From Eledone cirrhosa (Eukaryota), in NCBI GenBank assembly GCA_964016885.1, contig OZ024742.1:88660001-88724000 (forward strand): DNA of 64,000 nucleotides, written 5' to 3'. This document shows positions 25,997-63,300 of the stretch, piece by piece. Every line of letters begins with the position of its first letter. The stretch's first letter is position 1. The notes beneath the pieces are model-generated. The model did no database searches. It had not been told where the DNA came from and saw only the letters and a list, made by a program, of their open reading frames with translations. The position numbers were made by a program, and so were the translations under genes.

Positions 25997-27028
25997 TAAC
26001 AGGTAAAAATAATATGTGAAAAGGATATATGTCAGTTGAGTCGTTTTATATATGTGTTGTGTTGCACACACACACTCCACATTCTTACCCACTCATACAT
26101 ATAGAAAAGTAAAGTACACAATATCTCTTTCTAAATATCACCAGATATGAAGTCTAGAATTTCAAAGTGCATTAAATCCAACACGTAACAATTTTATTTT
26201 TCATGGAAGTTTCATTTGTATATATTTGCATATGCATTTCAGCTCATTATGTGCGGCAATGTCACCGCGGTATGTTGTAAAAACCTTTCTGAATATCAGG
26301 AAATTATGCACTTAAAATAATTCATGTTATTTCAATTTCACAATATATATTTATGTAATGCTTCCCAGTAGATTCCATACTCCTTTGTTTTTGACAAGAT
26401 CGGGTGTAACTACGATCGTAGTCACCAATTTTCTGATACATAGTCAGGATTGCATCCTTAGATATTTTAAACAAATTTCTTTCTTTCTTACTCGAGCATA
26501 ATATTCATCAATGCTTTGAATATGTATGAAACCGTTATATAAAAGGGTATTAGAATAATTATTCTAATACTATTAAGCGAATGCATCGCCTGCTGCAGTC
26601 TCCTTCTCCCTGATATTTCCTTCACTCTGCATATATATACACCCGGCACACACACACATAAACAAACATAAACAATATACATATATTTATGTATGTCCGT
26701 GTATGTGAGTGTGTGGGTGTGTATATACGTATTTAATAAATATGTATATATATATATATATATAAACGGAAAAAATGAAACGATATTTCATTTCCCAATC
26801 TTAGTACGGCTGCTACTTAAATATAAGTATGTACACGTACATACATATATGTATACTGACATACAGTAGTATGTATATATATATACATACATGCACACAT
26901 ATCTATATGTACGTATGGATTCACGGAACATTTATTATAATGCTCGGTGTGTTTGTAAACAAGCATCCCGTGTTAAGCCGTAGTGTCTAGCAAGCACCGT
27001 TGCTGGTTTGTTCAACATTGACAAAGGA

Positions 27029-27071
27029 ACGCTGTACTAGTTTCAAGCTTGTTAGCTATCGTCAGCAACGT
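27029..27071 (-). ncRNA. Minimal type I hammerhead ribozyme (family C)
   Basis: ACGUUG-CUGACGA-U-AGCU AACA AGCU-U-GAAA-CUAG-UA-CAGCGU. Intact core, 6-bp stem I, palindromic stem III (ACUAGU), GUA site. Confidence 0.85.
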
Positions 27072-27174
27072 ATACCTTCCTGCCAGATTGTTGAACGTAT
27101 ATAGTTACCTTATGCATATTAACGGCTCAGTAGCCCAATTTGCATATCGAGTGGTTTAATCGGCAGGAAGGTAT

Positions 27175-27217
27175 ACGTTGCTGACGATAGCTAACAAGCT
27201 TCAAACTAGTACAGCGT
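27175..27217 (+). ncRNA. Hammerhead copy (family C) with G12C core mutation
   Basis: Same motif but CAAA replaces GAAA; predicted inactive. Confidence 0.75.
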
Positions 27218-60200: not shown

Positions 60201-63068
60201 TATATTCTACTACCGATGTAATACTTTATTTGTTTTTTTCCCTATTACTAAATTCATTTCCTAATATTGATACCATAACGTTAATAACTTTAATTTAGTT
60301 ATACTATAATTAATACTCTACTACTATTTAACTTCAAAATTCTGCTTCAAATATTATAAACCTAACTAATTTACACCTTAGAAATCAATATGTTAACAAT
60401 CTTTAGTTTAGTTAACATATAATTAATGGTATACTTATTTTGAAATGCATAATTTTGCCTTATTTCTTGTATTTCCTAACACTGAAACTATGTAAAAACA
60501 TATATTGGGATCCAGATACAGATAATATTCTATGTTTCTTGAAACATATATTTACTATAATCCCCTTCTCCAACCCCCCCTTTCACCCATACTATTATCA
60601 TCTGCGTTTGTAAGCGTGTATGTATGAATATATATGTAGGTAGGTGTATATATGTTTGGGTATTTATATCTGAATATAAAAATACATATATGCGCATGCA
60701 AATAAGAATGTAAGATTGTGTGTATATATATGTGTGTATATATATATATATATGTGTATATATGCATGTGTATATATATGTGTATATGTATATATATATA
60801 TATGTGTATATGTGTATATGTGTGTGGGCGTGTATGTGTGCGTGTATATATATATATATATGTGTGTATGTATGTGTATATATATATGTGTATATATATG
60901 TATGTCTCTCTATATATATGTCTATCTTCGTATCTATGTGGCTATATGTGTGTATGTACATGTATGCACATGTATATGTTTATGTGTATATGTGTGTATG
61001 TGTATATATGTACGTGTGCGCACATATATATGTGAGTGTGTGTGTGTGTGTGTGTATATATATATATATGTGTATATCTATGTGTGTATATATGTCTATA
61101 TTCGTATGTGTATATATATATATATATATATATTATTTATTATTATAATATAACTTATGTGTATGTGTGTATATGTGAGGGTGTGTATATGTATATATAT
61201 GTATATATATATGTGTAAAAAAATATATATGTGTATGTGTGTTTTTTTGTGTGTGTGTATATATATGTATGTATATATGTGTGTATGTGTGTGTTTGTAT
61301 GTGTGTTTATGGTTGTATGTGTGTGTGGCTGTATATATATAAATGTATGTGTATATATATATATATATGTATATGTATCTCTATTAATGTGTGTATATAT
61401 GTATATGTATATACCTTTTTCTTTGTATGTCGGAATTGTGTGAGAGTGTAGTGGTGTTTGTATGTATATACGCATATATGGATGCGTATGTATTTGTATA
61501 TATGAGTATATGTAAGTGCGTATGTATGTATGAATATATATCTATGTCTATGTACGAGTATATATGTGTGTGTATGTATGTTGTGTGTGTATGTATGTAT
61601 GTGTCTATGTGTGTATATATATATATATGTGTGTGTATATGTATGTATGTATCTGTATGTATGTACATATATGTCTATGTATATGTGTATGTATATATGT
61701 ATATATATATATATATATATATATATATATATATATATATATCTTTATTTTATATATATGTGTGTGTGTGTATGTGTGTGTGTGTATATATATCTTTATA
61801 TATGTGTATGTGTATGTTCGTGTAGGTGTATGTGTGTGTATGACTATATATGTATGTGTGTATGTGTGTATGTATGTATATGTATGTGTGAGTACATGTA
61901 TGTATGTGTATGTATATATATGTGTGTATATGTGTATGTATATATATATATATATATGTGTATATATATATATATATATATATATGTATATGTATCTCTA
62001 TTTGTATGTGTATATGTGTATAGGTATATACCTTTTTCTTTGTATGTCTGAGTTGTGTGAGAGTGTAGTGGTGTTTGTATGTATATACCGATATATGGAT
62101 GCGTAAGTATTTGCGTGTATGTATGTATGTATGTCTGTATGTATTTGTGTGTATATATAGGTATGTATGTGTATATCTGTATGTATATAAGTATGTATGT
62201 ATATGTGCGTGTATGTGTATATATATGTGTGTCTATATATGTATGTGTGATTATATGTGTATATATGTGTGTATATATATATATATATATATATTTATAT
62301 GTATGTGTGTATATGTGTGTAGGTGTGTATATGTATATGTTTATATATGTGTGTGTATGTGTGTTCTAAGTGTAGATGTGTGTATATGTATATATATATA
62401 TATATATATATATATATATATATGTATATATATATATATATATATATTTTCTTGATATATTTCTTTTTTCTTTTTTCTTTTTCTTTTCTTTCCTTTTTAA
62501 TTTTTATTTTTTTTCTTAGTTTATAGATACATCTATAAATAAGCAGTCTGCCCAAACCGTTGAATACTGACCTCTCCCCCCCTCCCACCTAATTTCTGTA
62601 TCTTGATCTAAATGTGTGTGGCAGTGTTTATGTGAGTGAATTAATATCCATGTGCTTATGATAATATTATATGCACATATATATATATGTGTGTGGGGGT
62701 GTGTCTGCGTATGTATGTTCGTAATTATGTGTATGTTTATGCATATACGCGCGCGTGTGTGTGAGTGTACGGATATGTGTGAGTATGAGAATATGTGTAT
62801 ACACTTATTTCATATTTATGTGTCTATACGCATCTTATCTGTGCATTATAAACTTACAGAGACATTAACCTTGACATTTTGTATTTGCATGCATCTTTTT
62901 GGCATGCGTATGCATGTTGAGCATACATCTTTTTATAAATATGTGTACGGGGTAGTTACATGTATATACACACGCCAAACTGCATAAAACCTTTTGTATT
63001 TTCATTGGTCAATTTTGTTCCCAAACGGACCTGAAATTTTGAATTGTTGTTATTATCAATAAATATAT

Positions 63069-63223
63069 TTCATTATTTCTGAAGACGGCGTATATGTGTG
63101 TTTGGTATGTATATTTAATCTTGATAGTTTGTATAATTTTGTATAATTTTGTACATAGATCTGTTGAATATGCATGCCAATTCTAACACATATATATCCT
63201 AGAAACGATCGTTAAATAATGAA
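63069..63223 (+). ncRNA. Hammerhead ribozyme with 116-nt stem II (family B, right arm)
   Basis: UUCAUUAUUU-CUGAAGA-[116-nt hairpin]-GAAA-CGAUCG-UU-AAAUAAUGAA. Perfect 10-bp stem I and palindromic stem III. Confidence 0.8.
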
Positions 63224-63300
63224 CTTTTTTTGTTTAATATAAGGAACTGTTTCATTGTTTTATTCATTATTTGTTTAATATTTTATATATATATATATAT

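Follow-up and report, generated by a model that had tools for sequence, protein, structure and literature searches.

Fold-back insertions of two Hydra-clade Penelope-like elements and of a retrozyme-like repeat in (TA)n tracts, with a twin-priming model for their formation

The window analysed here, 64,000 nt of a 3.0-Gb genome (C3:88660001–88724000), contains three fold-back insertions (A, B and C) that share a single layout: a (TA)n tract, an arm that carries a tail, a turn, an inverted arm without the tail, and a second (TA)n tract. This common layout had been claimed in an earlier reading of the letters alone (the sequence-only reading), and the arm coordinates and (TA)n flanks bear it out in all three cases. 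The single-copy tails measure 77 bp in A, 133–134 bp in B and about 61 bp in C, the last being the family value. The tail of A (38507–38583, minus strand, 77 bp), located by arm comparison and by the tandem copy at locus L101, is the 3′ end of a putative Hydra-clade element. It is followed by a perfect 118-bp palindrome (38584–38701, no strand assigned), identified by inverted-repeat and hammerhead scans, with a predicted hammerhead in each arm; the palindrome is centered on AGCT, where helix I begins. The tailed arm of C (26764–27167, minus) corresponds by unit comparison to positions 1–404 of a 420-bp tandem unit and its tail-less inverted arm (27158–27432, plus) to unit positions 55–326 (272 bases); about 80 bp of spacer in C are part of the left arm. 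The largest insertion, B, consists of its single-copy tail (56908–57040, minus), a tailed arm (57041–60182, minus; reference 135–3552, 3′ UTR only) and a tail-less arm (60172–63286, plus; reference 3576–135), with 97.1% identity between the arms over the 6.3 kb from 57041 to 63286. The window copy of B contains only 3′ UTR because its turn, at reference 3552/3576, falls 750 bases short of the end of the ORF (reference 4302), and no ORF was found inside A, B or C within the window.

The insertions are nested in one another's (TA)n ends, both at 26745–28206 and across 56812–64000. At the latter, a fragment of a relative of A with a hammerhead (A2, 56812–56881, plus) is followed by B, which sits in the (TA)n at the end of A2, and then by a second C insertion made of tandem units (63302–64000, minus; hammerhead 63702–63732) in the (TA)n at the right end of B. 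Each insertion therefore leaves targets for the next. An inverted repeat at 42408–42625 has the opposite layout, with its (TA)n run at the center. The window also holds decayed LINE-type elements at 15064–20017 (minus), 21590–24398 (plus), 34392–37840 (plus) and 52126–52854 (minus), which matched RT, AP-endonuclease or zf-RVT and are unrelated to the fold-backs. A dispersed repeat of ~190 bp, presumably SINE-like, occurs in tandem at 25614–25994 and again at 211–396, 12283–12399 and 41371–41547.

A structure scan for type I hammerheads returned seven matches in the window, compared with 0.05 per shuffle in 60 dinucleotide shuffles. These lie in both arms of A (38600–38638, minus; 38647–38685, plus), in the left arm of C (27035–27065, minus), in the C copy at 63.7 kb and in A2 at 56.8 kb (two overlapping cores), with one further, doubtful match at 54.6 kb. 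The core in the right arm of C is broken, since CAAA replaces GAAA near 27202. The hammerheads of B (about 57107–57257, minus, and 63071–63223, plus) were missed by the type I scan and were read by hand; the motif in both arms combines a helix I of 8 bp and a helix II of ~115 nt with both core boxes, and its fold has a z score of −6.2, with helix III absent from the lowest-energy fold. Rfam returned no hammerhead family among its 135 window matches at E≤1. Helix I of the A hammerhead is altered on both sides between subfamilies and that of C shows compensated variants; across B copies the core boxes are constant and helix II varies from 95 to 125 nt. Helix III is palindromic in B and C and has an 8-base loop in A. 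On their core boxes, helices I–III and covariation, the motifs of A, B and C are classed as predicted type I hammerheads. The expectation of a hammerhead in both arms of every insertion thus holds for A by scan and for B by hand, and breaks down in the right arm of C. The sequence-only reading had also counted about six hammerhead families; A, A2, B and C stand, and the cores at 27732, 31160 and 43439 failed the structure scan.

Several fragments carry related features. Two 5′-truncated elements beside (TA)n, at 31749–33054 and 43343–45032 (minus), are 91% identical and have a core without a clear helix I; the longer of the two starts with a stretch that we take to resemble the end of a GIY-YIG domain, and the pair probably belongs to another Penelope-like clade. 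The segments 27647–27786 and 54563–54700 are 3′ ends of another family with a hammerhead core, the first of them lying downstream of a decayed Hydra-clade ORF (described below) with a 242-bp TA run in between. A fragment of a B subfamily, ~80% identical, with the 3′ half of the hammerhead is found at 51226–51360.

Outside the window, both A and B lead to coding elements. A genome-wide search with a 30-base pattern from the B tail gave 7,196 exact matches, while the reversed pattern, used as a control, gave 0. Longer B copies reach an intact ORF of 813 aa (L094:3139–5580) and form tandem units of 6.6–6.9 kb; by hand count, about 105 of 150 scored B matches lie in an open frame of 830 codons. 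For A, an A-ORF-A unit of 4,251 bp is present in the tandem at L101, with the A tail just 5′ of the next ORF, and the A tail pattern, which is common to related subfamilies, has 14,486 matches. The B protein contains YRDD at residue 346 and IVY...YIG at 692–712 of 813, which makes the GIY-YIG domain C-terminal; it also has RWR at 37, DKT at 115, a CxCX5C linker at 673, CxxC at 771 and CxH at 799, and by eye no CCHH pattern was seen inside its core. The A protein is colinear with it, with RT followed by a C-terminal GIY-YIG domain, and shares RWR, DKT, CxxC and CxH; the CxCX5C linker is broken in the L101 copy. An Asn/Lys/Thr-rich stretch between RT and nuclease in the intact B protein (residues ~472–583), absent from relatives, recalls the N-rich inserts described in PMC3846280.

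The 92 homologues found are unnamed and gave no label. Because neither Pfam nor PDB gave a match for the B protein or for the decayed ORF of the window, the placement of the parents of A and B in the Hydra clade rests on these motifs and on the likeness, by eye, of their N-termini to Hydra proteins in the portion of the PMC8557442 supplement (File S4) available for comparison; on both counts they are best classed as putative Hydra-clade elements. The clade traits of a hammerhead in the terminal repeat and of (TA)n targets are present, with a TA run at 59 of 73 B tails. The trait 'generally shorter than 3 kb' fails for units of 4.25 and 6.6–6.9 kb, and this length is given as a tendency, not a strict rule, in the available text of PMC8557442. 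Neptune was dropped as a clade label on the motif test. The ORF at 29146–30942 (minus), which had been called Naiad-type, is decayed, is 28–50% identical to the B protein and has RT followed by GIY-YIG; since it is colinear with the B protein it is assigned to the Hydra type instead. Naiads have an N-terminal GIY-YIG domain and a DKA motif and are without canonical hammerheads, whereas here the nuclease is C-terminal, the motif is DKT and hammerheads are present. A and B are thus 5′-truncated copies of two young autonomous elements, and the proposal that Penelope-like enzymes make these insertions is upheld.

C is of a different kind. Its unit of 420–430 bp, with one type I hammerhead each, occurs in single insertions and in arrays of 8 or more, and its pattern has 11,498 matches genome-wide, units being counted. 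No ORF of its own adjoined C in 60 loci; Hydra-like ORF pieces were present in 4 of the 60, all apart from the C ends, and the termini of C have no likeness to those of A and B beyond TA/CA runs. The predicted match of each family to an autonomous Penelope-like element was accordingly found for A and B, and no helper was found for C in these 60 loci. The short tandem unit, the type I hammerhead and the lack of an ORF fit a non-LTR retrozyme-like passenger. Where C meets (TA)n its ends fall into two groups, with 18 of 44 at the base of the tail and 21 a further 60–64 bases on, and C forms inverted arms; these ends, together with (TA)n, are the same signature as in A and B, and C is likely to be moved by a Penelope-like (Hydra-type) enzyme.

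The geometry of the arms was counted in B. In a set of 73 tail matches taken in order along contig C1, with one listed match left out, 32 insertions are closed and two-armed, 5 more have a turn, 15 extend past the parsed range and 21 are without an adjacent second arm. The tail-less arm starts at reference base 135–137 in 27 of the 32 closed insertions; the asymmetry of the arms is therefore not random, and the suggestion that such elements are a systematic source of palindromes in this genome is confirmed. Each family has two fixed outer ends. The two arms are equal to within 10 bases in 19 of the 32, with the tail-less arm longer in 11 and the tailed arm longer in 2, and in 4 of the 32 they share no sequence. 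A second set, 25 long B loci selected for their similarity, was read by hand; 13 of the 25 had entered the set as inverted pairs within the top matches. Twenty-one are two-armed, and each of these has exactly one tail; either arm may be the longer, the tail-less arm by more than 100 bases in 11 and the tailed arm in 8, with 2 equal. Unequal arms were also seen by eye: in A, where the automatic parse was misled by TA runs, at least 6 of the 44 insertions that are closed (out of 70) have them, and in C they occur at L270–272, L275 and L291. Short-read contigs of run X1, possibly from the same sample, show the A tail fused directly with the opposite arm at its ribozyme core. Divergence is 1.9% between the two arms of a pair and 10.8% between these arms and other copies (28 pairs), and both arms thus come from the same source copy, that is, from one RNA or one locus. 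Junctions at L164, L141, L081–083 and window 60180–60209 contain short templated repeats of the cDNA end (at most 3 copies of a 13-mer) like those of repeated re-priming.

Arm ends are concentrated where helix I begins, at its first base. In B, 37 of 64 ends fall within reference 342–351, at the 5′ edge of helix I, and all 36 A1 arms that end no more than 5 bases upstream of helix I stop exactly at its first base. The sequence TATAAATA lies 29–30 bases upstream of the stop in A1 and A2. A non-reference G precedes 14 of 15 A1 arms that are not joined through AGCT, in a biased set of loci; a hand count in an unbiased A set found G in 10 of 17 (P about 0.003 against 25%), and in B it precedes only 8 of 23 arms. 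The G is ambiguous, since its source can also be the partner arm or a short templated CCTG. These observations suggest run-off at a capped transcript start; an internal promoter has been shown in Drosophila Penelope (PMC2377424). B has no TATA box at −30 and has an initiator-like TCATT, and AATAAA, kept across B subfamilies, lies ~14 bases upstream of its stop (reference 349; window 57256 and 63072). For these reasons its 5′ end may instead be a processed one, and a poly(A)-type cut at AATAAA could be its origin. A weak hint comes from another organism, in which one contig has its turn at this base of B. Two other sources of the stop were rejected: a 3′ splice site behind the A stop, as in D. 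virilis, since the arms keep AG and have no common upstream exon, and ribozyme cleavage, since the ends are at the 5′ edge of helix I and not at the cut site.

Our preferred reading, to which we give a probability of roughly 0.72, is that A and B are truncated Hydra-clade insertions, that C is a passenger repeat, and that the fold-backs arise by twin priming and not from a hairpin. In this model the GIY-YIG domain would cut both strands of a (TA)n tract, and one 3′ end would prime reverse transcription at the end of the tail and the other at its base, each through about 3 bases of TA-like match. Both cDNAs would run 5′-ward on the same RNA, or on sister RNAs of one locus, and stop independently, after which microhomology or a short templated filler would link their 3′ ends in head-to-head orientation. 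Short palindromes would derive from the transcript's 5′-terminal repeat copy; if, as proposed, the cap sits on the first base of helix I, both cDNAs would run off at that same position. Cleavage by the predicted hammerheads would not be needed. A Poseidon element in vitro likewise cuts and extends both strands, uses two start sites that bound the tail and does not require ribozyme cleavage (PMC11167929). No start-site difference between the strands is reported in the available text of that study, whereas B always has one tailed and one tail-less arm. A fuller version, whose chances we put a little short of even, holds that double priming is ordered at two fixed sites of one RNA; that the first base of helix I is the capped start, with the ribozyme acting as a 5′ boundary module of the template and not as a cutter; and that this machinery also copies the RNAs of retrozymes in trans and is the source of thousands of palindromes in this genome, ranging in size from 120 bp to more than 10 kb.

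The sequence-only reading had instead proposed hairpin self-priming, in which second-strand synthesis starts from a single cDNA bent back on itself; such priming has been proposed from palindromic junctions (PMC3846280). On this account, unequal arms would result from later deletions at the center of the palindrome. The near identity of paired arms fits a hairpin, as do the 19 equal-armed insertions among the 32 short B copies, some of which are at non-hotspot places, and a weak age trend of unequal arms. A self-copied strand, however, cannot hold sequence that its cDNA lacks, and the tail-less arm holds sequence absent from the tailed arm in 11 of 32 short and 11 of 21 long B insertions; two RNA-templated cDNAs are therefore the simpler reading. 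A hairpin would also need one-sided deletions, often of kilobases, in 19 of the 21 long young insertions, yet unequal arms occur at zero divergence (0/179 in L217 and 0/86 in L228); it does not account for the 4 of 32 pairs without overlap, its folded strand could not prime the loopless junctions (L201, L218 and A), and it leaves the fixed end at base 135 unexplained. Against twin priming, later one-sided deletion of a hairpin palindrome could mimic unequal arms; asymmetric B insertions tend to be older, as this rival would have it, though not significantly so (arm divergence of 3.1% in 9 asymmetric against 1.4% in 19 other B insertions, p=0.14; rho 0.27, p=0.16), and in some equal-armed insertions (window B, L097, L148 and L152) the turn lies away from the hotspot, which a hairpin also explains. 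On this balance we consider the hairpin unlikely.

Twin priming as proposed uses one RNA or sister RNAs of one locus; a further account has two RNAs paired through a palindromic helix III, one on each enzyme subunit. Helix III is indeed palindromic in B and C, hammerheads of this kind are thought to act as dimers (PMC4209133), and the enzyme is predicted to be dimeric (PMC11167929). But 15 of 28 arm pairs have no equally close copy among 72, and free pairing of RNAs from different loci must be rare because arms match each other better than they match other copies. The 8-base loop in helix III of A, and the same layout in Naiads, which are without hammerheads, also count against such a dimer, which we regard as improbable.

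Hardly any weight can be given to the original suggestion that A, B and C are all ribozyme parasites without coding capacity that a Naiad mobilizes in trans: in its favour are the lack of an ORF in the three within the window and of one adjoining C in 60 loci, but the termini of A and B are repeats of coding elements, of which A and B are truncated autonomous copies, and the enzymes are assigned to the Hydra clade, so that mobilization in trans survives for C only, as the likely case set out above. Long-read fold-back chimeras exist and the A arms are identical, but an origin of the palindromes in assembly errors or in inverted duplication at the DNA level is very improbable, as the arms of B and of C have diverged by several percent, ends fixed for each family recur in dozens of loci, and turns are present in short-read contigs of X1 and in one contig (14 loose letters) of another organism, X6.

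In LINE-1 twin priming, two target ends prime two cDNAs that are joined by microhomology and that cover different parts of the RNA, giving an inversion; under the model preferred here the cDNAs overlap, giving an inverted duplication, and both starts are fixed. The closest described elements are those of the Hydra clade (Craig et al., 2021, PMC8557442), compared here through the available text and supplement, which like the parents of A and B have a single ORF with RT followed by GIY-YIG, the motifs RW(K/R), DKT, CxCX5C, CxxC and CxH, (TA)n targets and a hammerhead close to the 3′ end; the members listed there include one from an octopus, Hydra-1_Obim, and an inverted 5′-truncated copy is noted for Penelope-13_HM. 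The units described here differ in length (6.9 and 4.25 kb against 'generally <3 kb'), in the 4.3-kb 3′ UTR of B with ~2 kb of CA/TA-rich sequence, in tails of 62–77 and 134 bp against 30–40 bp, in a B helix II of ~115 nt, far above any in the available File S2, and in hammerhead sequences unlike those of Hydra-1_Obim. Penelope and Poseidon (Arkhipova et al., 2013, PMC3846280; Frangieh et al., 2024, PMC11167929) share the head-to-head inverted copy, the tail on one arm, the two start sites bounding the tail and the AT-rich targets. The junction is ascribed to self-priming in the former, and the second-strand steps are left open in the available text of the latter; the genomic counts here speak for two cDNAs, both templated by RNA and each begun at a single start site of its own.

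The layout itself is not new: partial tandems, inverted 5′-truncated copies, one-end tails of 30–40 bp, (TA)n targets, hammerheads in the repeats, self-priming and the start sites have all been published, at least in the portions of these sources consulted, and opposite-strand hammerhead pairs have been seen in Schistosoma. Neither twin priming nor cap copying in Penelope-like elements was the subject of any paper returned by our literature search, which did not reach several of the older publications on Penelope. As far as that search extends, what is new comprises long Hydra elements with 62–134-bp tails, a very long helix II, counts in favour of twin priming, arms that end at helix I, and a retrozyme bearing the Penelope signature. 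Penelope-like elements are the closest relatives of telomerase, and the origin of their inverted repeats and tails is described as an open question (PMC8557442; PMC11167929). With thousands of young insertions and more than 100 open ORFs of one family, these steps can be counted from sequence, and a natural intact protein in this genome makes the steps of insertion testable. Like C, non-LTR retrozymes (Cervera and de la Peña, 2020, PMC7229834; Li et al., 2026, 10.64898/2026.07.22.740005) have a tandem unit with one type I hammerhead, no ORF and thousands of copies, and in the available text of both studies their link to Penelope-like elements is argued from co-occurrence and phylogeny. C carries the Penelope signature itself, with two fixed ends 61 bp apart, an inverted arm and (TA)n, and so offers direct support for which enzyme moves such RNAs.
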